DNA of 62,614 bases, from positions 1 through 62,614 of the forward strand of contig JAUSKM010000033.1 of the NCBI GenBank assembly GCA_030646955.1, given 5' to 3'. Made by a program: the position numbers and the translations under genes. This DNA is from a bacterium (GTDB lineage: Bacteria; Patescibacteriota; Patescibacteriia; JACPHY01). Of this stretch, positions 13,088-56,555 are shown in pieces (position 1 is the first letter of the stretch; the number at the start of each line of letters is the position of its first letter). The notes beneath the pieces are model-generated. The model saw only the letters and a program-made list of their open reading frames with translations. It was not told where the DNA came from and searched no databases.

Positions 13088-14086
13088 ATGGATTACGTTG
13101 CAGACGAGAAAACGCTCGCGGATTACTGGAACGTCCTCGAGCGTCGTTGGTACATTTTGTTCGCGACCGCCATCCTCGCCATGGTCGGTACGTGGATATG
13201 GGTGCGCAGGCAACCCCCGCAGCCCTTCCCCTTTATCACGACGATTGAACTCGGGGAATCTATCGATACAAATGGGGTTGCCGCGAAAATGAGAGCGGAG
13301 TATATTCCTAGTGTATTGATCGAGGAGGCGAATCGGGATCTGTACAAGAACCAGAGGTATGCGGTCAATGTTGAGGCCGTGGAGGGAGAAAGCATCATTG
13401 CGCTCCGATCAGTCGGGGGAGAGGAGCAGGCCGCGAAGATTCTCAGCATCCACCAATCTTTAGTGGACAAACTCCTCAAAGATAGTGCACAGGCTGCAGC
13501 GAGTATTCGGAACGATCTCGAACGCAAGAAGTTCGATGCGGATCTCGCTCTTGGCGTTTTGCGGGACACAATGACGCATTTTCCCCAACAGGAGCGCGAT
13601 CTTGATGAGGAGGAGCGCATCGCGAGGCGGCATCTCGTGGAGCTCAAGGCGCTTCAGGAGACCTACCGGAACAATCGGACGCAGGTCATCCTCTTGGAAG
13701 CGTCACGCGATCCGGAGAGCCCGTCGCTCGCAACTGCACTCCTCCTCATTGACGCCACGATCGAGGCGAATGGGGAGAAGGTCCAGGTGCTCGAGCAACG
13801 CTTGGCCGGCGGATTTCCGCAAGAGCGTCGCTCGATCGCGGAGCGGCGCAGCAGTGTGCAGCGGGACATCGCTGGTCTCGAGCGTGACGTTGACGACATC
13901 CAGAGCCGCATCGATACTATCAAATATACGCAGGTACTCATTCCACCCTCGCGTTTCCTTCGGGTCGACCGTTCTTTCGTGTTCCGTGGTGTGGCCATCG
14001 CTGCGTTCGCCGGGCTTTTTGTCGGGGGTGTGATCGCTTTCTTCCTCGAGTTCATTCGCAACGCGAGGAAGCTACGCACCCACTAA
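13088..14086 (+). CDS. Wzz-like polysaccharide co-polymerase (chain-length determinant topology)
   Basis: It has an N-terminal TM (WYILFATAILAMVGTWIW), a long coiled-coil-like middle and a C-terminal TM (GVAIAAFAGLFVGGVIAFFLEF). The call rests on topology and context. The start is 13052 or 13088. Confidence 0.55.
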   Translation: MDYVADEKTLADYWNVLERRWYILFATAILAMVGTWIWVRRQPPQPFPFITTIELGESIDTNGVAAKMRAEYIPSVLIEEANRDLYKNQRYAVNVEAVEGESIIALRSVGGEEQAAKILSIHQSLVDKLLKDSAQAAASIRNDLERKKFDADLALGVLRDTMTHFPQQERDLDEEERIARRHLVELKALQETYRNNRTQVILLEASRDPESPSLATALLLIDATIEANGEKVQVLEQRLAGGFPQERRSIAERRSSVQRDIAGLERDVDDIQSRIDTIKYTQVLIPPSRFLRVDRSFVFRGVAIAAFAGLFVGGVIAFFLEFIRNARKLRTH

Positions 14087-19138: not shown

Positions 19139-20650
19139 ATGCTCCATACCCGTACCGTGATTGCCGCTTGCGTCGGATTCCTCACGGGTGTTGGCATTGC
19201 ATCGATCGCGTTTGCGTACGTGATTGTCCCATGGATCCCGATCGCCGTAGTCTGCAGCGCAGCAGCTCTCGCTGCGGCGATCGGGATGCGCGGTGCGCAT
19301 CGTCGGTTCGCCGTCGTAGCGATGAGTGCGCTGGTCTTCGGGATTGTGCGGTTTGCAATCGCGGTGCCGGTGCCCGCGGGTGCCGATGCGGATACGGTGG
19401 AAGGACGCGTAGTGCGCGTTGTGCCCGCGGGAGATGGTCGCATGCGCGTCGCAGTGCGCGATGCCGCGTATGATGCGCCGATTGTGGTCTCTCTGACGCG
19501 CAGCGATGTGCGATACGGTGATGTGATCCGTGTGTCGTGTGCGCCGCGCCAACCGCGATACCTGCGTGATCGGCTCACTGCCGCGGGCGAGTGCTGGGTG
19601 GGTGCATACGTGACGCCGCAGCTCCTCGCGCGGGGCGGCGGGAGCCCAACGCTCCGTGCGCTCGGCGCGCTCCGAGAGCGCTTCGCGGCAACGAACGCAG
19701 CTCACCTCACCGGCAATGCGCGCGCAGTCACCGCGAGTATTGCGCTTGGCGACCGCACCGCAACTACCGGCGCGCTCCTTGAGGCGTTCCGCACGACCGG
19801 CACGGTGCACGCGCTCGTCGTTTCCGGAGGGCATATGAGCATCATCGGTATGCTCCTCCTCGGCGCGCTTCGGCACATCCCCGTGCATCGGCGCACAGCG
19901 CTTCTCGCAACAGTCGCGATTCTTGCCGCGTTCGTTGTGATGGTAGGCGCAGATCCTTCCGCAGTCCGCGGCGCGCTCATGGCCGCTGCGCTCATTGCCG
20001 TGGAACTCTGCGGGCGCATTGCGAGCCGCGTCCGCATCCTCCTCCTCGTGGCGGTCGTGATGGTGGCTGTCCACCCGTACGTCCTTGCCTACGATCTCGG
20101 GTTTCAGCTCTCCTTCGCCGCTGTTGCCGGCATCGTGCTCCTCACGACAGTATTCGAACGTGCGCTCCCTGGCCGGCACGCGTGGGGGCGCGAGGTGCGT
20201 GCGGCGATCGCGGCATCCGCAGCGGCGACGATTGCCACCGCGCCGCTCCTCATCGGCGTTTTCGGCACATTCTCGATCATCGGAGTGCTCGCGAACGTCC
20301 CAGTCCTCCTTCTCCTCACGCCGCTCCTTGTCGCTGCGTTCGCCTTCCTTGGCCTCGGAACGCTCCTCCCGCCACTCGCGCCGCTCCTTGCGTGGCCGGC
20401 CGGCGCATTTGCGCACAGCGTCGCGTGGATCGTACAGCGCGCCGCGGCAATCCCGTGGGCGCAAGCGCATTTCGCCCCATGGGATTGGTGGTTCATTATT
20501 GGTTGCTACGCGTTCCTCGGCGCGTGCGTCATCGGGAGCATGCGGGCACGCGGAGAGCGCATCCTCTCGCCGTTTCGCGTACTCTCCGCTGACGCCGCGC
20601 TCCTCTCCGGCGCACCCGTACAGTGCGAGGAGCAAAGAATGAGAAGTTGA
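19139..20650 (+). CDS. comEC: ComEC/Rec2 DNA-uptake channel, membrane (Competence) domain only
   Basis: It is polytopic and carries FRTTGTVHALVVSGGHMSIIGMLL, the Competence-domain signature. It lacks the C-terminal MBL domain, which is encoded by the next ORF. Confidence 0.8.
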   Translation: MLHTRTVIAACVGFLTGVGIASIAFAYVIVPWIPIAVVCSAAALAAAIGMRGAHRRFAVVAMSALVFGIVRFAIAVPVPAGADADTVEGRVVRVVPAGDGRMRVAVRDAAYDAPIVVSLTRSDVRYGDVIRVSCAPRQPRYLRDRLTAAGECWVGAYVTPQLLARGGGSPTLRALGALRERFAATNAAHLTGNARAVTASIALGDRTATTGALLEAFRTTGTVHALVVSGGHMSIIGMLLLGALRHIPVHRRTALLATVAILAAFVVMVGADPSAVRGALMAAALIAVELCGRIASRVRILLLVAVVMVAVHPYVLAYDLGFQLSFAAVAGIVLLTTVFERALPGRHAWGREVRAAIAASAAATIATAPLLIGVFGTFSIIGVLANVPVLLLLTPLLVAAFAFLGLGTLLPPLAPLLAWPAGAFAHSVAWIVQRAAAIPWAQAHFAPWDWWFIIGCYAFLGACVIGSMRARGERILSPFRVLSADAALLSGAPVQCEEQRMRS

Positions 20651-33323: not shown

Positions 33324-34072
33324 CACAACCCGCTATTGCCGCTGAACACCTGACGCTCCAACGCGGTGGCGAAACTATCTGCGAGGACTTTTCGTTTTCC
33401 ATTACCGCGGGTGCGTACGTTGCGGTTATCGGGCCCAACGGCGGGGGCAAAACAACATTGCTCCGCGCGATCCTCGGGCTTACGGCGCCCACAATCGGCA
33501 CCGTACAGCTCTTTGGGGCGCCGGCGTCTGATGCGCGCGTTCGTCGGCGCGTCGGCTACGTTGCGCAGCGCGGGGGTTCCATTGACCCGCAATTCCCCGC
33601 GACCGTGCGAGAGATCGTCGCGGCTGGGCGCGCGCAATACGGCGGCCTGTTGCGACGGTTGACGGACGAGGATCATCGCGCGATTGCAGATGCGCTCGAT
33701 CGCATGGGTATTGCGCGGCTGCAGGAGCGGCCGCTGGGCACACTCTCCGGCGGGGAACGGCAGCGGGCGCTCCTCGCCCGCGCACTTGCGGCTCGGCCGG
33801 ACCTCTTGGCGCTGGATGAGCCGATTGATGGTTTGGATCCCGCATCGCGGGAGGAATTCTACGCGGCACTGCGCGCGATTCATGACGAAGGGACAACAAT
33901 CCTGTTCGTCACGCATGACGTGCACCGCATTGTCCAAGAGGCCGATACGGCAATTTGTTTGCGTCACGAGTTGGTCTGCCATGGCGCGCATGCGTGCCAC
34001 ATCGGCGGTACGGAATTGCGCAACATCGTGCACCGGAGTCAGGACGAGCTCGCAGAACATCACAGCGTATGA
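33314..34072 (+). CDS. znuC: Zinc ABC transporter ATP-binding protein
   Basis: Walker A GPNGGGKTT, signature LSGGERQR, Walker B LLALDEP. Confidence 0.9.
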   Translation: MSVTQPAIAAEHLTLQRGGETICEDFSFSITAGAYVAVIGPNGGGKTTLLRAILGLTAPTIGTVQLFGAPASDARVRRRVGYVAQRGGSIDPQFPATVREIVAAGRAQYGGLLRRLTDEDHRAIADALDRMGIARLQERPLGTLSGGERQRALLARALAARPDLLALDEPIDGLDPASREEFYAALRAIHDEGTTILFVTHDVHRIVQEADTAICLRHELVCHGAHACHIGGTELRNIVHRSQDELAEHHSV

Positions 34073-34899
34073 CCAATGGCATCTTTGACTTCCTGGCGTT
34101 TGACTTCATGGTCCGCGCGCTCCTGGCGGGGATCGTCCTGGCGTTTGTTGCGCCGACCATTGGCATGTTCTTCGTCGTGCGACGATACGCGGTGATGGCG
34201 GACACGCTCGCGCACATCTCGCTCGCCGGCATTGCCGGGGGACTCTACGTCGGTATCGCGCCGGTGTGGGCTGCACTCCTTGCGTGTGCGCTTGCCGCGT
34301 TGGGTATTGAGCGTCTACGCGAGCAGCGAGTTCTTGCGCCGGACGCGATCATGACGCTGTTCCTCTTTGGCGGCCTCGCGCTCGGTGTCGTGCTCCTGGG
34401 CCTGCGGCCAGCAATCGGCGTGAGCGTGGCAAGTTTTCTCTTTGGGAGCATTTTGACGGTAACCGACGGGTCGCTCACCGCAATCGCAATCATCGGTGCA
34501 TGTACATTCCTCATCACCGTGCTGCTCTGGCGTGCGCTCTTCACGGTTTCCCTCGATGAAGATGTCGCGCGCGCGGGCGGCTTGCCCGTACGGTTCATCA
34601 ACCGTACACTCGCGGTACTAGGAGCTGCGACCATTGCGATCTCCATCAACGTCGTCGGCCTCCTCCTCATCGGCGCACTCATGGTGATTCCCGTGCTCGC
34701 CGCCATGCAGTTTCGCGTTGGATTCCGCGCGACGTGGGCCATCGCACTCGCCGTCGCGGTTCTGTCCGTCGTGATTGGCCTCATGATGTCCTTCTCGCTG
34801 AACCTCGCGAGCGGCGCCACGATCGTCCTCATCACCGTTTTTGCATTCCTCGCGTCGCTCGTCCTCTCGAGATTCGCCGCGAAGGCGCTGCGTTCCTGA
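34069..34899 (+). CDS. znuB: Zinc ABC transporter permease
   Basis: MTNGIFDFLAFDFMVRALLAG is an ABC-3 family start, and the protein is polytopic. An ATGA overlap links it to znuC. Start moved from 33955. Confidence 0.85.
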   Translation: MTNGIFDFLAFDFMVRALLAGIVLAFVAPTIGMFFVVRRYAVMADTLAHISLAGIAGGLYVGIAPVWAALLACALAALGIERLREQRVLAPDAIMTLFLFGGLALGVVLLGLRPAIGVSVASFLFGSILTVTDGSLTAIAIIGACTFLITVLLWRALFTVSLDEDVARAGGLPVRFINRTLAVLGAATIAISINVVGLLLIGALMVIPVLAAMQFRVGFRATWAIALAVAVLSVVIGLMMSFSLNLASGATIVLITVFAFLASLVLSRFAAKALRS

Positions 34900-34962
34900 T
34901 CAGGAACGCGTTCATCCATTTGGAATGGGCGCTGCTCGTGTGTCGTGGTACGATGGCTCACT

Positions 34963-36063
34963 ATGATGCGACGATCCATGGCATTGTTTGCGCTTCTTGC
35001 AATTGCGTCGCTGGGTGTTGCGGGTCCGGTTGCAGCACAGGAAGGGGATACTGTTTCGGAGCAGGGGACGCTCATGGAGGAGGTGATAGACGAGTCCGTG
35101 CTCGGGGTGGTGCGTGAGGTGGCGCAGGGTGGAACGGAAGGCCAGCAGCTCGACGTGGAGGTGCTGGAAGGGTCAGCACGCGGGCGCCGGATCACGCTGG
35201 AGTTCCACGGGCCGGAGCTTGCGGCGGGCGACCAGCTGTTCGTGCGACGACTCGTCACGCTGGATGGCGAGGAGCATTTTCAGGTGGAGGAGATTGACCG
35301 TCGGGGGACATTGCTCGCGTTTGCGGCGCTGTTCGTCCTCGCGGTGCTCGCGCTCGGGCGCTGGCAGGGTGTGCGAGCGCTCGCGAGTTTGGGATTGAGT
35401 ATCGCCGCAATTGTCGGCATCCTTGTTCCGCGAATCCTCGACGGCGCATCGCCGGTCCTCTGGGGGTCGCTGGTCGCGATTGGTATCCTCCTTGTCTCTA
35501 TCGCGCTGACGCACGGTATTAACCGGGCGTCATTTGCGGCATTCCTGGGTACCGCAGGCGCCGTCGGGCTCACGACATTCCTCGCGACCATCGCGGTTGC
35601 GGCGGCCAAATTCTCCGGGCTTGCGAATGATGCGTCGTTCTACCTCGATATTGAGACCGGCGGCGCCATTGATCTACGCGGGCTGTTGCTCGCGGCGATT
35701 ATCATCGGTACCGTCGGCGTACTCGACGACGTTGCCGTGACGCAGGCGGCGGCGGTGGAGGAGCTGCACGACGCATCGCCCACGATCGCGTCGCGGGAGC
35801 TCTTCCGGCGGGCGATGCGCATCGGTCGCGAGCATGTGGGCGCGCTCGTGAACACGCTCGCGCTCGCGTACGCCGGCGCCGCGCTCCCGCTCCTGCTCCT
35901 CTTCCGCGGCGCGCTCGACCCGCTCGGCACCATCGTCAACCGCGAAATGTTCGCCGCCGAAATCATCCGCACCGTCATCGGCTCCATCGGCGTCATCACC
36001 GCCGTCCCCCTCGCCACCGGCTTTGCCGTTCTCTTCGTACACCGGAAACGGACGCGATCATAG
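34963..36063 (+). CDS. YibE/F-family membrane protein
   Basis: A signal peptide and soluble N-domain are followed by multiple TMs typical of YibE/F. The start is one of Met 34963, 34966 or 34978. Confidence 0.65.
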   Translation: MMRRSMALFALLAIASLGVAGPVAAQEGDTVSEQGTLMEEVIDESVLGVVREVAQGGTEGQQLDVEVLEGSARGRRITLEFHGPELAAGDQLFVRRLVTLDGEEHFQVEEIDRRGTLLAFAALFVLAVLALGRWQGVRALASLGLSIAAIVGILVPRILDGASPVLWGSLVAIGILLVSIALTHGINRASFAAFLGTAGAVGLTTFLATIAVAAAKFSGLANDASFYLDIETGGAIDLRGLLLAAIIIGTVGVLDDVAVTQAAAVEELHDASPTIASRELFRRAMRIGREHVGALVNTLALAYAGAALPLLLLFRGALDPLGTIVNREMFAAEIIRTVIGSIGVITAVPLATGFAVLFVHRKRTRS

Positions 36064-36071
36064 CAAGATGC

Positions 36072-36674
36072 ATGAACGTGCATCTCTCTACGTCAGGATC
36101 CTTGTTCGCCCGACACGCGCTCCTGTTCGCGTTGCGGATCGCGCGTGGGAGCATTGTTGCACCCGGCTACCTGCTCCAGGCAGCGGCCTCCATCTTTGGC
36201 ATCGTCGGGGTGCTCATGCTCGCCGGCGCATGGCGCGAGGGACTTGATGATGTCATCTTGACCGCCATCATTCGCATCTTTGGCGTGCGTGATGGCCGAT
36301 ACGCGTGGGATGCAGACGATGTCGTCGCATTCGGAGCAATAATCACCCTTGTATTCGGCATCATCGTTGCAGTCGTGCGGAGTGTACGTGCGCGCACGAT
36401 CGTGCTCCCCACTCGTCCTCGTCTTCGTACGACCGCCCGCTTCGTCTGCGTGAATACGGTCATCAGTTACACGCTCTTCACCGTCGGTGGCAACATCGCC
36501 ATGCAGGAACCCCTCGGATACACCGTGCCCATCATCATAGCCGTCTCGACGATCATCATCTCCCTTGGTGCGTTCGGAGCCGATGCGTTCCTTGGCTTCC
36601 TTCAACAGCATGTTGCCACGCCGTCGTCTACACACCACCCCCGGGATTCCGAAACCGGTACCGCGAAGCAGTAA
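36072..36674 (+). CDS. Hypothetical polytopic membrane protein
   Basis: 200 aa with 5-6 hydrophobic segments. No motif was recognised. Confidence 0.5.
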   Translation: MNVHLSTSGSLFARHALLFALRIARGSIVAPGYLLQAAASIFGIVGVLMLAGAWREGLDDVILTAIIRIFGVRDGRYAWDADDVVAFGAIITLVFGIIVAVVRSVRARTIVLPTRPRLRTTARFVCVNTVISYTLFTVGGNIAMQEPLGYTVPIIIAVSTIIISLGAFGADAFLGFLQQHVATPSSTHHPRDSETGTAKQ

Positions 36675-36740
36675 CGAGGTGCGGGTCTGCATTGAAATGG
36701 TGGTTCGATGATTGTTCTCTTTGCGACGCAGCTACCAAAC

Positions 36741-36771
36741 AAAGAACGCTTCCTTACAGGAAGCGTTCTTT
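36741..36771 (+). terminator. Rho-independent terminator
   Basis: A 13-bp stem aaagaacgcttcc/ggaagcgttcttt with loop ttaca. The 3' arm ends in ttt. Confidence 0.7.
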
Positions 36772-36775
36772 GATA

Positions 36776-36801
36776 CGGGCCGGACGGGACGGTGTTCGAA
36801 C
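36776..36801. repeat. Distal att-like direct repeat (partial copy of the tRNA-Asp 3' end)
   Basis: cgggccggacggga (36776-89) plus ttcgaac (36795-801) equals 41858..41878 except for a 5-nt insertion (cggtg). Confidence 0.65.
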
Positions 36802-37037
36802 AGGACTCCTGCAGGAAATTGCCGAATGGGCTGGAGTCGTGTGGAACGTGGAGGTGTGGGCACGGCAGGCGCAGGGATTACTCGTGGGAGTTTAGAAATC
36901 GAGCGAAAGCGGAGGCCGATACCGTTGGCGGATTCCGGAGCTTGAAATTTCAGTGTTTGATGAGTGGCGCAGAATTTTGGATTCCTCAGTTTCGGCAGAG
37001 ATCTGCAGGGTGTGATATACTTTCCACAGATAGTGTT

Positions 37038-37547
37038 ATGTCTCTCAACCAAGCAAAATACAATTCAAAGAAATTCAAAGAGCTGGTGCTTTATGTGGCC
37101 CAGCAATTTGGTGGCGAGATTAGAGGAAAGAAGCGACTGGCAAAGCTCCTCTACTTTGTTGACTTTGATTTTTTTGAGAAGTACGAGAAACCAGTGACGG
37201 GAAGCGTTTATCGTGCTCTGCCAATGGGTCCTTTTCCGGTCGAATTCCCTGAAGCTATCCGTGAACTAGAGAGTGATGGTTCGCTTTCGACACGCGCTGA
37301 CCAAGAGTGGGGTGAGGGGTACGAACCGACCGTTGTTTACCAAGCAAAACGTGAACCCGACCTCTCCGTTTTTTCGAAGGATGAGGTCGCGATGGTGGAT
37401 CGTGTCATCGGGAAGTACCGTAATCTCACCGGAACAGAGCTTGAGACGCTATCGCATTCGCAGGCCCCATTCGTCGGAACAAAGCCGGGAGAGGACATTG
37501 CCTACGAGCTCTCCTTCTACCGGGAAACCGACTTCAATGATGTTTAG
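37038..37547 (+). CDS. Panacea-domain (DUF4065, SocA-like) antitoxin candidate
   Basis: KKRLAKLLYFVDFDFFEKYEKPVTGSVYRALPMGPFP...LSHSQAPF is the DUF4065 signature. Start moved from 36792 to Met 37038. Confidence 0.8.
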   Translation: MSLNQAKYNSKKFKELVLYVAQQFGGEIRGKKRLAKLLYFVDFDFFEKYEKPVTGSVYRALPMGPFPVEFPEAIRELESDGSLSTRADQEWGEGYEPTVVYQAKREPDLSVFSKDEVAMVDRVIGKYRNLTGTELETLSHSQAPFVGTKPGEDIAYELSFYRETDFNDV

Positions 37548-37908
37548 TGTTGCTCGCCATTCAGCATTTGAGAAGGAGTTCCATGTCCTGTCAAAACGAC
37601 ACGGTCATTTTTTGGATAGGGCCATCGAATCATTCGAGCGTCTCTGTGAGAAACAGTTTGATCCCGTGAGCCCTGTACAGGTGATAGGTCCCGGGAAGTT
37701 GCACATAGTAGTGCAGTATGAGACGTATACGATTCGGAAGGTCGAACTTGCAGTTCCTACGCTGCGCAAGAATCAGTCGCCACGCGTTTGGTTTGCGCTC
37801 TGCGGAACGTCAATGTACTACCTCTGCATCGGAGTGCACGGAGACAACTACAGCGACAATGACATGGACAGAGTCGCCAAAGAGCGTGCGACAGATTTTT
37901 TTAGTTAA
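37537..37908 (+). CDS. Toxin candidate partnered with the Panacea antitoxin; RelE/ParE-like features
   Basis: Its start overlaps the antitoxin stop by 11 nt (ATGATG at 37537). Length is 123 aa. SAFEKEFHVLSKRHGHFLDRAIESFERL and RVWFAL...YYLCIGVHGD resemble the RelE/ParE/HigB layout, but the similarity is weak. Confidence 0.55.
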   Translation: MMFSVARHSAFEKEFHVLSKRHGHFLDRAIESFERLCEKQFDPVSPVQVIGPGKLHIVVQYETYTIRKVELAVPTLRKNQSPRVWFALCGTSMYYLCIGVHGDNYSDNDMDRVAKERATDFFS

Positions 37909-37920
37909 ATTTGTCGGTTG

Positions 37921-37953
37921 CACAAACTCCGCCCTACTAGGGCGGAGTTTGTG
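37921..37953. terminator. Bidirectional hairpin
   Basis: A 14-bp perfect stem cacaaactccgccc/gggcggagtttgtg with loop tacta. It lies between the toxin gene and the minus-strand remnant. Confidence 0.7.
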
Positions 37954-37964
37954 TTTGAGTTACT

Positions 37965-38202
37965 TTATTTCACCACATCGAACAACTTTTTCGGATCATC
38001 AAGCACCTTGAACTCCCAGATGCCGAAGTTGCCGTCGTTATTGACGGCTTGGATCCATTCTTCGGCGGCGGCCCATTTGGCTTTGTCCTGATCGCGGACT
38101 TGTTCCTTCACCTCTAAGAGTATGTGGCGGTCGTTCTCGAAACGGATGAGGAGGTCGGGGTAGTAGGCGTGAATCTGCCCCTGCCAGAGGTAGTAGATTT
38201 TT
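37965..38202 (-). pseudogene. Remnant of the C-terminus of a restriction-endonuclease/helicase-type protein (PD-(D/E)xK-like)
   Basis: The open frame has no start codon: KIYYLWQGQIHAYYPDLLIRFENDRHILLEVKEQVRDQDKAKWAAAEEWIQAVNNDGNFGIWEFKVLDDPKKLFDVVK*. The Y-PD(L/F)...LEVK core and the W..AVN..G.FG.W tail are typical of Res-type enzyme C-termini. A TAA stop lies immediately upstream. Confidence 0.5.
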
Positions 38203-38280
38203 TAAGACACGATCCGTCCTTTGACGTTGTTGCTCCTTTGTGCTAAGAACTACGGAAGCCCGTGATTAGCGCAAAGAAAT

Positions 38281-38712
38281 ATGTCTCGTATATCAACAAG
38301 AAGATTGGTGGTGATCCTCCTGTTTTTGTCCGTTTTTGCAGGAGCTGGTTGTCAGACGACCAGCCAAGCCGAGAATGTTGCTCCTGCGCGCAGTGCCCAA
38401 GCGGTGAGCATAGAGAGGCCCGCTGTCACCACTGTCATCAACACGGCACCATCCCAGGGGGCGCTCATTGTCCCGAGGGAGATGGCTCCGACTCCGAGTT
38501 GGCAACATGATCTTCCAGACAACAGCGTTGAGGATCTTCCCGCTCCTAGGGGGAAATACAAAAACGCTGATGGTCTCAATGTCCCGCGTCCTTACGTTGC
38601 GCCATCTGCACCCGTTGGTGCTTCAGCTCGATGTCGTGATGGAACGTACAGCTTCAGCCAGAATCGCAGAGGAACGTGCTCGCATCATGGAGGTGTTGCG
38701 GAGTGGCTTTGA
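38281..38712 (+). CDS. Lipoprotein with a C-terminal DUF3761 domain
   Basis: The lipobox is LSVFAGAGC. The C-terminus CRDGTYSFSQNRRGTCSHHGGVAEW matches the DUF3761 motif. Confidence 0.75.
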   Translation: MSRISTRRLVVILLFLSVFAGAGCQTTSQAENVAPARSAQAVSIERPAVTTVINTAPSQGALIVPREMAPTPSWQHDLPDNSVEDLPAPRGKYKNADGLNVPRPYVAPSAPVGASARCRDGTYSFSQNRRGTCSHHGGVAEWL

Positions 38713-38721
38713 TAATTGGCG

Positions 38722-41505
38722 CTACCTGAATAAGTTTGCAAACCAGCGAAATAGCCGCTTCCACCATGATGGTTTTGTCTCCGAGACCGCTTCATTGGTC
38801 TCTGTGGTGGAAGCATCTTGTATTGCGTCTTGGTGAGGATCCGCCTGCTCAGGTTCGATGACGATTGATTCCTCCGGAGCACTGTTCGGTTGTTGTTGGG
38901 TCCTTACATTTTCTGTGTCCGTGACCGGTGGCAGCTCCCTAGCTGGCGGTGGTCCAACGAGGTCCCCTGACTTGTTTGTTTTGGGGATGAATAGCTCAAG
39001 CGAATCAAGTTTGTTGAGGTCGATGTCTTCAAGGACAGATACTCTCGAGTACCTGTTGTTCATCGTGTCTCCTTGAGCGAGTGGCGCGTTGTTCGTCCAC
39101 GCATTGATCGTGTTTATTGAGAGAATGTACCCGAGCGCGTTTAGTTCACCCTTGACGACCGCTGACGGGATACCGATGTATGAGCCATCGCGAAGATACG
39201 CGCCACCTCCGGAGTTGCCGTGTTCAAGTATTGTGGTGGTTTTGAGGTATGCCCCGTCAGTACCACTGAAATCGCCACTCGTATACGTGAGCTTCGTGCC
39301 GAATTTCGCAGGAAATCCGTATGCGGCGATGTCGGAACCCAGTCGCGGGTTTTTGTTGCCCCTAGCTACATCGATGCTAGACAGCGGTCTGTTTTGTGGG
39401 TTCCTGAGCTTCAACAACGCAACATCTTGGCTCGGTGAGACTCTCACAATGTCCGCAATGTGTCTCTCTCCGAAGTACGGTTCGTCGTTGAAATCATTGA
39501 TGAACCCCACAAGACATCCGAGCGTCCCCGCTACCACATGCTTGTTCGTTAGAATCGCTCCACTCGAATCGATGACCGTCCCCGAGCCCTGACTTGCTTG
39601 ACGATAATTAACTGGGCAGAGCAATTTTACGGTTGCCTTGACGATTGTATCCTGACCAGTCACTTCTCCGTTTTGTGGAGGTTGTTGTGCGGGTCGGCTC
39701 GGTGTCTCACAGTATTGCGCAGTAGTAGGAGGTGCGGTCTCTGCGCTTGGGCAGTCGAATGACTTTAAACAGTTTCGATTTTGTATCCCCGAAAGAGAGC
39801 ATTCGCTCCAACCACCGCATGTCCACACGTCCGCATTACATGCTGGCTGCGGAGGAGTGCACGCTTGCACCGTCGCGGGTGAGGGAGTCGCGATGATTTG
39901 GCAATCAAATGTTTTGGTGCATGTTCGATTTTGAATACCGCGTCCCGAACATTCGTTCCAGTCATCACAAGACCATGTATCGACAGTGCATGTCGATTGT
40001 GGAGGTGTGCAGTTTTGCGAGGTTGCCGGTGATGGAGTTTCTGCGGTAGGACAATCAAATTTTTTGACACAACTTCTTGTTTGCGTTCCGTATGATGAGC
40101 ATTGATTCCAATCGCTACATGACCAAGTGTCAGTAGAGCATGGTGGAACGTAAGTACACGATTGAGACAACAGAGGATTGCCGCCGACGCATCCTGTCGG
40201 CGATGAAGAAATGACGCTTCTTGTTTGTTGCCCTGACGGAGAACATGCCGACCAATTGGAGTATGCCCACGCAGCGCATGTCGACACCCTAGCTCCAAGT
40301 ATCGTAATTGGAAAGGAATTACTATTGTTTTGTTCAGGGATGGAGATCACCAAGGGAACTTCCTGCCTGATCCTTGTTGAATTATCTTTGACTAGACTCG
40401 GGTCAACAATCCGTATTCGAATTTTTGTATCTGTCCAGCTGATCAAAAAACCCTTTCCTTGGGACTGACCATCAATAAAGACACCTGCCCCCGGCGATGC
40501 GACAAGACCGTCACCAATAATTGTTCTATCCCCGAATCCAGTACCAATAATATCAACCTCTTGATTAAAGTATGCGGAGGCGGGATTGATTGAATTAATT
40601 TTTGGGACTGGCGGCGTACAGCTTTGCTGTAATATTGGATTGCCGCCCGCGCATCCTTCAGGCGATGAGGAAATTATTGTTCGTGATTGCTGCCCATTCA
40701 TTGAGCAAGCATCCCAGCTTGAGTACGTCCATGAGGCGCAAATCGGCGGGGTGTAGGTACAGGATTGTGATGTCGTAGGAGCGGAAACGCCACCCTCGCA
40801 ATCAGAATTTTTACCACACGTTCTCGCCTGTGTTCCTGATGGAGCACATGCGCTCCAGTTCTCGCAAGAGTAGTCGTTTGCCGTACAGGCAGTAGTGCAC
40901 GATTGGGTGAGCACCGGCTCACCGCCAGTACAGCCGTTTGGAGAGGAAGAGAGAACTGTTCTTGTTTGCTGGTTATTGGTACACGCACTCCATTCGGAGT
41001 ACGTAAGGGTAATGCAGGTAGGAGGCGGTGGAACGTAAGTGGCTAGAGTGCCGCGTGTGCAGATTCCTTGATTGTCGGACGCAGAAGCGTACTTCCTTAA
41101 AATGACGTAGGAGCCCAAAGTGCTGCCAGACCCAGGAGCAATCTCAAATTGAATTTCGTTGTCACTCCATGAAAGGAGTCCGAATGGCGTATCATTCACG
41201 CCATCTATTGATCCGCGCCCCCGATAAACCATGAGCACCCCATTATCAGTCGGAACGTAGAGCATCTCGGGGATAGAATCGTCGATGTTCCTGTCGCCAA
41301 ATCCTGTTCCCAGGATCTTCACAACGTCGCCACGAGTAGTCAGGTTCGATGGGGTGAACTCTGATCCAGCAAGGCATCCTGTTGTTTGAAAATCGGTAGC
41401 GGAGTAGGAGCTAGTTGCCGCACGAGCGGACGTAGCACTCGCGAAGAAAATCAACAGGAAGACAACGACGGGCAAGTATTTTTTGATTCTCATATTCATG
41501 TGCAT
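38722..41505 (-). CDS. Secreted trypsin-like (S1/Trypsin_2) serine protease with two IPT/TIG-like segments and seven Cys/Trp TSR-like repeats
   Basis: The signal peptide is KKYLPVVVFLLIFFASATSARA. The triad motifs are TNKHVV (His codon 39538-40), DVALLKL (Asp 39424-26) and GNSGGG (Ser 39211-13). The repeats lie at about 39700..41020. Confidence 0.8.
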   Translation of the reverse strand: MHMNMRIKKYLPVVVFLLIFFASATSARAATSSYSATDFQTTGCLAGSEFTPSNLTTRGDVVKILGTGFGDRNIDDSIPEMLYVPTDNGVLMVYRGRGSIDGVNDTPFGLLSWSDNEIQFEIAPGSGSTLGSYVILRKYASASDNQGICTRGTLATYVPPPPTCITLTYSEWSACTNNQQTRTVLSSSPNGCTGGEPVLTQSCTTACTANDYSCENWSACAPSGTQARTCGKNSDCEGGVSAPTTSQSCTYTPPICASWTYSSWDACSMNGQQSRTIISSSPEGCAGGNPILQQSCTPPVPKINSINPASAYFNQEVDIIGTGFGDRTIIGDGLVASPGAGVFIDGQSQGKGFLISWTDTKIRIRIVDPSLVKDNSTRIRQEVPLVISIPEQNNSNSFPITILGARVSTCAAWAYSNWSACSPSGQQTRSVISSSPTGCVGGNPLLSQSCTYVPPCSTDTWSCSDWNQCSSYGTQTRSCVKKFDCPTAETPSPATSQNCTPPQSTCTVDTWSCDDWNECSGRGIQNRTCTKTFDCQIIATPSPATVQACTPPQPACNADVWTCGGWSECSLSGIQNRNCLKSFDCPSAETAPPTTAQYCETPSRPAQQPPQNGEVTGQDTIVKATVKLLCPVNYRQASQGSGTVIDSSGAILTNKHVVAGTLGCLVGFINDFNDEPYFGERHIADIVRVSPSQDVALLKLRNPQNRPLSSIDVARGNKNPRLGSDIAAYGFPAKFGTKLTYTSGDFSGTDGAYLKTTTILEHGNSGGGAYLRDGSYIGIPSAVVKGELNALGYILSINTINAWTNNAPLAQGDTMNNRYSRVSVLEDIDLNKLDSLELFIPKTNKSGDLVGPPPARELPPVTDTENVRTQQQPNSAPEESIVIEPEQADPHQDAIQDASTTETNEAVSETKPSWWKRLFRWFANLFR

Positions 41506-41825
41506 TATTACAATAATTTGCTTGTTGTAGTAAGTCCTATCTGCCTTTGACCCTCAGAAAGTCAATCTAGTCGGGGAGAGCACAAAGCCCCCCGCCAGCC
41601 AGACGACCTTTCGGTCGCCCATGCCCTTTCGGGCATGACCATCCCTGGATGGCTGAACGAGGGGTTCAGTACCAGGGATGGATTTGGATTGCCATGCCGT
41701 CCTATGAGGACGGTTTAGGCACGGGTTCAATTGGTGAACAAGGAGCAATCCCGCGCTTCGGGACTACAAACCCATCGTATCAAAAAACAGCAGCAATCAA
41801 CCAATGATGCAATGCGCACACAACG

Positions 41826-41852
41826 CAAAACGCGCCCCCTTGCGGGGACGCG
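41826..41852 (-). terminator. Hairpin with T-run downstream of tRNA-Asp
   Basis: On the minus strand, cgcgtcccc-gcaa-gggggcgcg (one mismatch) is followed by ttttgcg. Confidence 0.55.
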
Positions 41853-41857
41853 CTTTG

Positions 41858-41933
41858 CGGGCCGGACGGGATTCGAACCCGCGATCTTCGCCGTGACAGG
41901 GCGACGCGTTGAACCGGGCTACGCTACCGGCCC
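41858..41933 (-). tRNA. tRNA-Asp (anticodon GTC)
   Basis: Hand-folded: acceptor GGGCCGG/CCGGCCC, discriminator G, D arm GCGT/ACGC, anticodon stem TCGCC/GGCGA, loop CT-GTC-AC, T arm GCGGG-TTCGAAT-CCCGT. CCA is not encoded. Confidence 0.9.
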
Positions 41934-43421: not shown

Positions 43422-43874
43422 CTAGAAGTCCGTGCTGCGCACGGGCCGGAAATCGGGTTCGGGTTCTTGGTTACGATCCGTGCTGCGCACGGGCCGGAAA
43501 CCGGGTTCGGGTTCCTGATGAGGGTTGGTGATGCTCACCGCCGGGGCGGCCGCGAGGGACGCCACGGAGGGGGGTGCGATCTCCTGCCTTTTGACGACGG
43601 TCGGCGGAGCGATCTCGTCCGTCTGATGATTGGGCGGCAATTCCGCCTCTTCCGGCGCGCGGGTGGCGAGATCGGGCTCGCCTTCTCCCTCGGGCGCCTC
43701 ATCCTCGTCGTACGGGTCGTTGGTTTCTTCCTCGGTCCCGTCGCCTTCGTCCAAGGAATCATCGTCATCCGCCGTTGCGCCGTCGGGGGGCGGTGTCACA
43801 TCGGTCTTCTCTTCTTTTCTGCCTCCGCCTCTCAAGATGTCGGCGAGGGGATCGGCATCGTCGTCTGTTGCCAT
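43422..43874 (-). CDS. Highly acidic, probably disordered protein with a C-terminal tandem repeat
   Basis: The start is MATDDDADPL, preceded by AGGAGG 6 nt upstream (track ORF start 43934 rejected). The protein is Asp/Glu/Pro-rich. The C-terminal QEPEPxFRPVRSTD occurs twice. Confidence 0.55.
   Translation of the reverse strand: MATDDDADPLADILRGGGRKEEKTDVTPPPDGATADDDDSLDEGDGTEEETNDPYDEDEAPEGEGEPDLATRAPEEAELPPNHQTDEIAPPTVVKRQEIAPPSVASLAAAPAVSITNPHQEPEPGFRPVRSTDRNQEPEPDFRPVRSTDF
43429..43517. repeat. Tandem direct repeat, 2 copies of 41 nt with a 48-nt period
   Basis: tccgtgctgcgcacgggccggaaa[t/c]cgggttcgggttc[t/c]tg occurs at 43429-69 and 43477-517. It encodes the repeated C-terminal peptide of the acidic protein. 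Confidence 0.85.
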
Positions 43875-51748: not shown

Positions 51749-51765
51749 AGTGTAATTGCCAATTA

Positions 51766-52164
51766 TGGAGGTGGGGGGAGTTGAACCCCCGTGTGGTGCA
51801 TGCGTTGACCAATTCCTTCTCCAGGCACAGTCCTGTTCATGATGTCTCGCGTGCGCTTAAACAGGACAAAACGCGCACGTGATGAGCCCCGATGTCATCT
51901 CGATCCGCCGACGAGGCGCACAGCAGATCCAGCTCGATGATATTGCACCCGAGGTGTGCCTATCGAGCATGGGCACATCGGATGGGCAGTGCGGTTAGGC
52001 GACTGCCGAAGCGAGCGTCGGCATACGGAACGCATTGCGAACCGCATCCTTCACCCGGCTGAAAGCGTTGACACTTGCTTTCTTGTTCGCGGGATTTACG
52101 AGGCAGCGAACAACCCTCGGCCTGCTGGATTTGGAACGAATACCCATCGAATCCCGTCACCCCC
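51766..52164 (-). ncRNA. ssrA: tmRNA (SsrA)
   Basis: The 5' end GGGGGTGACGGGATTCGA pairs with the 3' end CACCTCC-A, giving a G3:U70 wobble. The T arm is GGGGG-TTCAACT-CCCCC. An internal open frame ends in ...LASAVA-TAA. It lies immediately downstream of smpB. CCA is not encoded. Confidence 0.85.
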
Positions 52165-55358: not shown

Positions 55359-56555
55359 ATGTTGCAACGCACCAAGCATCCATCAACACCGTCCGATGCC
55401 ATAGCAACGCCGCTAGAGCGTTCCGCGGCGCGCGCGGGGCGATCTGGTTGGATCGCGTTCACCGGCATCGTGGCGTTGCTTGCGGGTATTGCTGGCGGAC
55501 TCATCGGGATGACCTTTCTCGTCCCGGTGCCGCAATCTGTTGGCGCACCTCCCGTTGTTGGGAGGACGCGCGGCGATAACGCGCGCATAGGATTTCCAGC
55601 AATTGCCCCGCTTGCGGCGGCGGTTGTGGAACTTTTTGATGCGCAGCAAGCGGCGACGCTTGGCGATCGTGTTGGGCGCGGTGTCACCCTGACCAGCGAT
55701 GGGTGGATCGTGACGGTTCGCGGCGCACTGCCTCCAGCAAAACGCGGGAGCGTGCCGGCGGCTGCGGGACGCGATCGGGTGCTGCACGCGGCGGTACGTG
55801 CGGCTTTTGATCCGCTTTCGGATCTCGTATTTCTCCGGACGCCCACGCTTGCAGCTTCTGTGATCCCGCTGTGTACGGATTGCGCCCTTGCGCCAGGCAC
55901 TCCGCTGTTCGCGCCCACGGAAGACGGCGGACTCACGGCACTACGTCTGCGCGCGCGGCACGTCCGTCGCGGAGCGGGGATACTGCGTTCTTCAGATCAA
56001 TGGGAGACGCTCCTTGCGTTTGACGGATCAGCGCGATTAGCTCCGGGAACGCCGATCGTGAACACAGACGGCGCGCTTGTCGGCCTGGTGCTGGCGGACG
56101 ATGTGGCGATCCCCGTGGATGCGATTGCCTCAGCGCTCCCGCAACTCTTCCGGGGCGGCACGGTGATACGCAATGGACTTGGCGTGACGTACCGCGATCG
56201 GGCAGAGTTGGTGATGCGCGGTGATGGCAGCGCCGCTGCTCCTGATGGCGCAGAGATCGCCGTACCACTCCGTGGAACCGCGTTTGCCGCCGGAAGTCCG
56301 CTTGCTGGCCGCGTTGAGATTGGAACGGTGGTGCGTGCGGTGGGCGGAGATCCGTTGACGGCACGGAGGTTTTTGGCCGAGTTACTCCAGGAGTATCCAC
56401 TTGGCGCGTCGGTATCGCTCGTCATGTCGCGTCCACGCGTTGGTGATGGAGCTGCCACAGAGACGATCGAGGTGCCGCTCATGCAGGTTACTGGAGAGAC
56501 CATGACGTACGCCGCTTCCGCGGAGCAGCCGCGCGGCAGCGCTGCGGGGGGTTGA
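55359..56555 (+). CDS. HtrA/DegP-like protein with a PDZ-like C-terminus, catalytic His and Ser apparently absent
   Basis: A TM anchor is followed by GRGVTLTSDGWIVTVRG (His position lost), DLVFLRT (Asp kept) and LAPGTPIVNTDGALVGLV in place of GNSGGPL. A PDZ-like segment follows. Confidence 0.55.
   Translation: MLQRTKHPSTPSDAIATPLERSAARAGRSGWIAFTGIVALLAGIAGGLIGMTFLVPVPQSVGAPPVVGRTRGDNARIGFPAIAPLAAAVVELFDAQQAATLGDRVGRGVTLTSDGWIVTVRGALPPAKRGSVPAAAGRDRVLHAAVRAAFDPLSDLVFLRTPTLAASVIPLCTDCALAPGTPLFAPTEDGGLTALRLRARHVRRGAGILRSSDQWETLLAFDGSARLAPGTPIVNTDGALVGLVLADDVAIPVDAIASALPQLFRGGTVIRNGLGVTYRDRAELVMRGDGSAAAPDGAEIAVPLRGTAFAAGSPLAGRVEIGTVVRAVGGDPLTARRFLAELLQEYPLGASVSLVMSRPRVGDGAATETIEVPLMQVTGETMTYAASAEQPRGSAAGG

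Follow-up and report, generated by a model that had tools for sequence, protein, structure and literature searches.

Why does a stretch of about 5 kb with a composition of its own lie against the 3′ end of a tRNA-Asp gene in an uncultivated, Uhrbacteria-like member of the Patescibacteria, and is it a relic or still in play? The locus belongs to contig JAUSKM010000033.1 of assembly GCA_030646955.1, whose positions 1-62,614 are called the window here. A preliminary description of this DNA had taken the interval for an old, partly decayed integrated element. The evidence supports a reading of the interval as foreign DNA inserted at the 3′ terminus of tRNA-Asp, its borders marked by a direct repeat of that terminus. 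We consider it likely that positions 36776-41857 (5.1 kb) are an integrase-less genomic island which was integrated at this end by site-specific recombination, and the island is probably still variable in the population.

The tRNA-Asp(GTC) gene lies on the minus strand, as first described; the Rfam tRNA model places it at 41858-41933 (67.9 bits) and ARAGORN at 41857-41933. On the plus strand its end (41858-41878) reads CGGGCCGGACGGGA followed without a gap by TTCGAAC. The repeat begins at the discriminator base of the tRNA. That a second copy of the tRNA end lies in the same orientation at 36776-36789 and 36795-36801, interrupted by 5 nt, is confirmed by the sequence: 36776-36801 reads CGGGCCGGACGGGA-CGGTG-TTCGAAC, with CGGTG standing between the 14-mer and TTCGAAC (36795-36801). 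A count of the 14-mer, proposed together with the preliminary description, was run within the window and gave two exact copies only (36776-36789 and 41858-41871), both read on the plus strand. These copies are referred to as the distal and the proximal core. The features at the two borders are:

36740-36772, no strand assigned: perfect 15+15 hairpin (inverted repeat, 100% complementary), directly outside the distal core on the host side.
36776-36789, minus strand: distal 14-nt core (discriminator base, 3′ acceptor strand and part of the T stem), exact match, attR-like.
41830-41856, minus strand: terminator hairpin directly after the tRNA, recognised from sequence, on the island side of the core.
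41857-41933, minus strand: tRNA-Asp(GTC), called by ARAGORN; its 3′-terminal 14 nt (41858-41871) make up the attL-like proximal core.

The tRNA-Asp gene adjoins the island with its 3′ end at 41857. We read the hairpin at 36740-36772 as the native terminator of tRNA-Asp, which also serves a convergent gene of 200 aa; this terminator and the one beside the tRNA are about 60% alike. A decayed second copy of tRNA-Asp at the far border was rejected, as the tRNA model gave no match on 36730-36900 even at E ≤ 10. No CCA is encoded by the tRNA-Asp genes of the window (at 41857) and of groundwater contig L016 (at 3163), where CAAAG... follows, nor by that of locus L026, where TAG follows; the other five aligned loci having the same tRNA 3′ half encode it.

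One rival explanation of the two cores is a chance repeat beside an ordinary variable region, with no tRNA-linked insertion. The motif is short and G+C-rich, and about 1.5 matches per window are expected if two mismatches are allowed. An exact match on the same strand is expected only about 0.0015 times per window by our own estimate from base composition, and the repeat coincides with the compositional borders, with a contig break and with the edge of cross-species similarity, all described below. We give this explanation hardly any credence.

The composition of the interval sets it apart from its surroundings. The GC content is 0.510 in 36802-41856 compared to 0.614 and 0.625 in the left and right flanks, and it is at least 0.571 in all 475 other 5-kb segments. 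An unconstrained two-change-point likelihood fit on GC content placed the borders at 36690 and 41830, at most 90 nt from the repeats. Four of five coding regions in the island have a GC content at third codon positions (GC3) of 0.49-0.56, compared to 0.71 ± 0.08 in 27 flank genes, and the likelihood of synonymous codons is low for the protease gene (z = -4) and the DUF3761 gene (z = -5) described below. The tetranucleotide distance of the island is 0.443, that of other segments 0.169 ± 0.032 with a maximum of 0.284 (z about 8). The sliding comparison of GC content and codon usage thus agrees with the AT-richer interval and the codon shift that had been noticed by eye. The A/T-leaning codons are not island-wide: a restriction-endonuclease stump has a GC3 of 0.725, which is host-like and unlike the rest of the island, so that the island is a compositional mosaic.

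An independent assembly bears on the present state of the island. The same strain is represented by contigs in Logan's assembly of run SRR13727527. Logan derives its contigs from a de Bruijn graph with k = 31, in which all 31-mers are distinct, and records the links between them (PMC12424806). One contig (L011) corresponds to window positions 33377-36789 with one single-nucleotide polymorphism and ends at the last nucleotide of the distal core; another (L033) corresponds to 36760-38070 with zero differences. The two overlap by exactly 30 nt, which is k-1, and are unmerged, the split falling exactly at the boundary of core and island. Since linked contigs were left unmerged, the node has a further edge: another molecule in the sample has the same left flank and 14-nt core and departs from the window sequence at the first island-specific base. 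An empty tRNA-Asp site predicts exactly that branch, and its private path of about 46 nt is shorter than the 150-nt reporting limit of Logan. At such a site ...CTTTGATACGGGCCGGACGGGA would be joined directly to TTCGAACCCGCG..., the junction lying between ...AGGAAGCGTTCTTTGATACGGGCCGGACGGGA and TTCGAACCCGCGATCTTCGCC, and the circle of the excised island would be closed between ...GGGGACGCGCTTTGCGGGCCGGACGGGA and CGGTGTTCGAACAGGACTCC. A second, co-existing allele without the island junction is implied for the SRR13727527 sample, and this allele is probably an empty site. The break is a strong, though indirect, sign of a strain-level presence/absence polymorphism, or at an alternative occupant, in one natural sample. 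The label "old" given to the element at first is at odds with such a co-existing allele.

The break also bears on a reading in which an insertion in a common ancestor was vertically inherited and is now immobile, the far border being kept for a host function (such as a promoter or small RNA serving adjacent genes). The break would then have a cause other than an empty-site allele, and yet it falls at the exact nucleotide predicted by the att junction. The tetranucleotide composition, still far from that of the host, likewise speaks against an ancient insertion. The absence of an integrase from the ORFs scanned, the presence of one pseudogene and a toxin-antitoxin (TA) pair which would fix the island are in its favour; the remaining evidence comes from the far border itself, where the distal core continues into the following element:

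36790-36861, no strand assigned: island-side arm with the CGGTG insert and a T-loop-like TTCGAAC; it extends about 72 nt past the core and measures about 85 nt together with it.

This arm, delimited as ACGGGCCGGACGGGACGRTGTTMGAAC ... GAATGGGCNGNAGTCGTGNGGAA, has a counterpart in GCA_030647005.1, a related metagenome-assembled genome (MAG) from the same sample whose YibE/F and IF3 proteins are 66% and 81% identical to those of the window. Contig 5 of the relative (L012) carries a syntenic left flank, and its positions 13717-13803 are 77% identical to window positions 36775-36861 (core plus arm, 87 nt). The similarity ends at the host side of the core, and the adjoining host intergenic DNA is unalignable. 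The core and insert of the relative read ACGGGCCGGACGGGA-CGATG-TTAGAAC, preceded by a terminator and followed by about 60 aligned nt. As the 5-nt insert and the roughly 72 nt beyond it recur at the corresponding position in another species, they form a conserved arm and not a decaying copy, and the degeneracy of the repeat can no longer be taken as a sign of decay. Read from the alignment, the differences between the two species have no coding periodicity. No supported RNA fold was obtained for the arm on either strand, the tRNA model did not match it, and arm patterns had no match in viral contigs or in any other fetched locus; among the genomes examined only these two carry it. For the ancient insertion the shared 5-nt insert would be a derived character of both species. 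The lack of a supported RNA structure or family for the arm is a point against a retained host function.

Contig 1 of the relative (L040) supplies the other side of the site. Its syntenic right flank (SmpB, tmRNA, infC, L35, L20, a large protein, SLT and three small proteins) is followed by tRNA-Asp, a terminator and then AT-richer DNA (0.547 compared to 0.627). This stretch opens with a MopE-motif Cys-rich protein, and neither the protease nor the LOOT RNA of the window (see below) was found in the portion read. An island thus fills the tRNA-Asp site of this second species, the nearest relative, as well; its far border carries the same arm, and its cargo differs at the single, tRNA-proximal end read. 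The different tRNA-proximal cargo again disagrees with vertical inheritance of one ancient insertion, which we regard as quite improbable overall.

Another rival is a hotspot or cassette-exchange site, at which the tRNA-Asp 3′ end and the arm of about 85 nt are anchors kept by the host lineage and the cargo is replaced, either by a trans-acting recombinase or by homologous recombination of taken-up DNA. Both species have the same anchors and chromosomal position with cargo that differs at the one end read; the arm is conserved like coding DNA next to intergenic DNA that is unalignable; copies within one genome are alike beyond the core; the island is a mosaic with a host-like remnant and no integrase was found in it; and ComEC is encoded at 19139-20650. 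On the other side, the arm is present in two genomes only and was not found in viral contigs or other fetched loci, no recombinase candidate was identified, and an integrase could lie in the middle of the relative's island, outside the part read. We consider an exchange site unlikely. A little less likely again is its most specific form, in which the lineage of Uhrbacteria-like Patescibacteria has conserved a site dedicated to exchange. Cassettes for secreted Cys-rich surface proteins would be swapped there between strains and species, through a recombinase encoded elsewhere or homologous recombination of imported DNA, and LOOT would be one of the passengers, possibly as a leader for the protease gene.

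Other tRNA-Asp loci were inspected for DNA at the same side. The 3′ half of the tRNA is common to 13 metagenome loci, and the metagenome scan for this half yielded no locus of the same species. In one locus (L025) a large serine recombinase of 507 aa (Resolvase, Recombinase and Zn_ribbon_recom domains) abuts tRNA-Asp and an XRE/LexA-like gene is also present; in L019 a TdeIII endonuclease and an N6_N4 methylase (restriction-modification) are encoded downstream of tRNA-Asp together with a LexA-like gene, the latter recognised by sequence only. A contig from Hainich groundwater (L024, 3565-3713) has a perfect copy of the tRNA-Asp 3′ half from the anticodon loop, 74 nt downstream, and this tandem copy looks like an att scar. 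By the contents of these three loci, accessory DNA recurs on the 3′ side of tRNA-Asp in this group. The last context examined, a Uhrbacteria contig, ends before tRNA-Asp.

Several observations weigh against the integration of an island by site-specific recombination. The exact repeat comprises just 14 nt, and no empty junction was read directly. The terminator at 41830-41856, which we assign to the element, recurs as a near-identical stem after tRNA-Asp in L016, an unrelated contig with host-like downstream genes. No integrase or piece of one was found in the island, whose lack of an integrase had already been stated in the preliminary description, nor in the larger ORFs of the window that were scanned, and no known phage or plasmid was matched. 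Finally, the two copies in the relative are identical over 21 nt, and the terminators that follow them past the tRNA end are similar. Such likeness beyond the core within one genome is not predicted by a fixed tyrosine-recombinase crossover and hints that the copies have undergone gene conversion or exchanged sequence by homologous recombination, either of which may contribute here.

With these reservations an integrated island remains the reading we prefer. The repeat, the compositional borders, the identities of the genes and the RNA, the arm in a second species and the graph break at the core were observed; from them we infer the integrase mechanism, the empty-site allele and what the cargo does. 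Its history would begin with a crossover inside the 14-nt core common to the attachment site of the element and the tRNA. The tRNA would have been rebuilt from host 5′ sequence and the core, and the core with the old downstream terminator would have been displaced by 5.1 kb, beside the element-derived arm extending about 72 nt past it. The island would since be stabilised by its TA pair, and movement at present would need an integrase acting in trans or homologous recombination via the conserved flanks, namely the tRNA and the arm.

The TA pair lies next to the arm and is followed by a second hairpin:

36960-37547, plus strand: Panacea/SocA-like antitoxin (PF13274, 69-71 bits); gene call of 195 aa on contig L033, alternative start at 37038.
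37537-37908, plus strand: putative toxin of 123 aa with a predicted RelE/HigB/YafQ-type fold; 11-nt overlap with the antitoxin stop.
37921-37953, no strand assigned: perfect 16+16 hairpin (inverted repeat) between the toxin gene and the endonuclease remnant, probably a terminator.

The Panacea-domain gene and its small partner are adjacent and co-directional. The toxin of 123 aa had no sequence match in Pfam, NCBIfam, PADLOC or PDB, and a profile of 35 members had none in Pfam, NCBIfam or PDB. The family is rare (58 clusters among 1.84 billion representatives), its proteins have about 120 aa, and no relative was found in viral contigs. P82 and H101 are invariant in the family, N104 and Y105 nearly so. 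A structure predicted from the single sequence was not usable (predicted local distance difference test, pLDDT, 41), and the AlphaFold2 model obtained with an alignment of relatives reached a pLDDT of 96.5. The best Foldseek matches of this model were HP0892, HigB1 of M. tuberculosis and YafQ (probability 0.97-1.0); HigB and YoeB complete the top five, for which the probability is up to 1.0 and the target-length-normalised TM-score (TMt) 0.54-0.65. By this model the pair is a Panacea antitoxin with a predicted RelE-fold toxin of a rare, unnamed family. In the known type II system PanA/PanT (PMC8832971) a Panacea antitoxin likewise adjoins and overlaps a small toxin gene; in contrast, the toxin found here belongs to a rare family without a Pfam model, and its RelE/HigB-like fold is predicted only. 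As cargo, the pair would act as an addiction or defence module that penalises loss of the island.

The inventory of island genes given in the preliminary description stands, yet an RNA was overlooked:

41602-41721, minus strand: LOOT RNA (RF03000), full length (78.2 bits compared to a gathering score of 46.4; positions 1-121 of the 121 of the model).

The RNA is separated by 136 nt from the tRNA and by 96 nt from the protease start downstream of it. LOOT was termed a metagenomic-based RNA in the Rfam paper (PMC7779021), and the source alignments are those of ZWD from the Breaker and Weinberg groups. The match reported here covers the full model far above the gathering score and adds a host lineage and a context, that is a tRNA-Asp island and a gene for a secreted protease 96 nt downstream. 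To our knowledge neither a host lineage nor such a context had been reported for LOOT. The RNA contains two GAAA tetraloops, and its first hairpin is receptor-like (CCUAA...AUGG). In other genomes, the DNA upstream of protease homologues contained no LOOT. The pattern of the first hairpin, TGCCTAAACC...GGCATGGCAA, occurs in three viral contigs, all of which scored below the LOOT gathering score and were rejected as candidates. In two of them (L030 and L032, from IMG/VR) the pattern lies 1.6-2 kb upstream of a group II intron domain V, and we attribute it to a common tetraloop-receptor-like motif and not to homology with LOOT.

Three further genes make up the island:

37965-38204, minus strand: C-terminus of a BPTD_3080-family restriction endonuclease, a pseudogene (last 78 codons and stop; PD-(D/E)xK part).
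38281-38712, plus strand: DUF3761 lipoprotein (PF12587, 84.7 bits).
38722-41505, minus strand: secreted trypsin-like (Trypsin_2) protease of 927 aa with seven Cys-rich repeats (PF13365).

Domain searches bore out the accessory gene content suggested earlier (SocA_Panacea, DUF3761, Trypsin_2) and identified the remnant. It corresponds to positions 888-964 of the 970 of NF046055 (E = 4.7e-20); its frame is closed upstream and the full BPTD_3080 endonuclease of about 970 aa is not present, so that one gene is indeed a remnant. The seven repeats of the protease lie at residues ~172-610 (W-S-x-C ... G-x-Q-x-R ... C) and resemble thrombospondin type-1 repeats, and no Pfam model matched them. Homologues of the protease are 55-63% identical over about half of its length, and all the named ones belong to Patescibacteria. 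Both homologue contexts inspected are among housekeeping genes, with a GC content of 31-46% in the one profiled; we propose a lower-GC patescibacterial donor for the protease gene. A second Trypsin_2 protease gene in the window (55359-56555, plus strand) resembles the host in composition. It occupies a syntenic position in both relatives (L040 710-1861, L042 4649-5824) and is therefore a core paralogue of the island protease domain.

Exact-protein look-ups for the protease, the DUF3761 protein and a YibE/F ORF of 372 aa (as first called) gave no match. By blastn the island had no match among 50,697 phage records and, among plasmids, just a match to a DUF3761 domain. A prophage was rejected: the PHROGs matches were weak, unknown or generic (protease, endonuclease, and a weak head-closure match on the nuclease stump) and formed no coherent phage module.

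Compared to known elements, the island resembles tRNA-linked islands and integrative elements of the tyrosine-recombinase type (P4-like, pathogenicity and fitness islands) in its insertion at a tRNA 3′ end, the direct repeat of that end at the far border, a composition of its own, accessory genes and a TA module. It differs from them in that no integrase was found at the tRNA-proximal end or elsewhere in the island, in its size of 5.1 kb only, in its host from the Patescibacteria (candidate phyla radiation, CPR), and in the far arm, which is conserved in a species whose island opens with different cargo. With integrase-less mobilisable islands and satellites that rely on the recombinase of a helper (elements of the MGI or CIME type) it shares att sites without a recombinase of its own and possible movement in trans. 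Unlike in these, no helper, oriT, relaxase or excisionase was identified, and mobility is deduced from one assembly-graph branch.

The kind of element is well known and current views are not overturned. Patescibacteria have tiny genomes, and we know of little documentation of their mobile DNA; the locus offers a useful, well-bounded example, a cleanly delimited tRNA-linked island in this group whose site is filled by other cargo in a sister species. It also gives LOOT, described only as metagenome-based and without known function, a host lineage and a gene neighbourhood, and adds a family of toxins with a predicted RelE fold, paired here with a Panacea antitoxin.

Homologues of YibE/F and IF3 place the host in high-GC Patescibacteria, the closest named IF3 being that of Candidatus Uhrbacteria (71-73% identity). 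A contig scan with YibE/F returned, among the matches listed, solely actinobacterial relatives with 36-47% identity. The left flank of the island contains a polysaccharide gene cluster, ComEC, tRNA-Pro, GroEL, pyruvate kinase, a Znu/ABC-3 transporter, YibE/F and the membrane protein of 200 aa. To the right of tRNA-Asp lie genes for three small Ig-like proteins, an SLT transglycosylase and a protein of 1380 aa, followed by infC and the transfer-messenger RNA (tmRNA).

The tmRNA (51763-52164, minus strand) was found with the Rfam model at 120 bits, was not reported by ARAGORN, and has infC directly downstream. A second island at its 3′ end was considered and rejected, since the tmRNA is bordered directly by infC and no repeat is present. 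In four related loci fetched, tRNA-Asp and tmRNA are 1.4-2.6 kb apart. Beside the Ig-like genes of the window, an ORF of 170 aa contains two tandem 48-nt copies (43429-43524) that are 88% identical.

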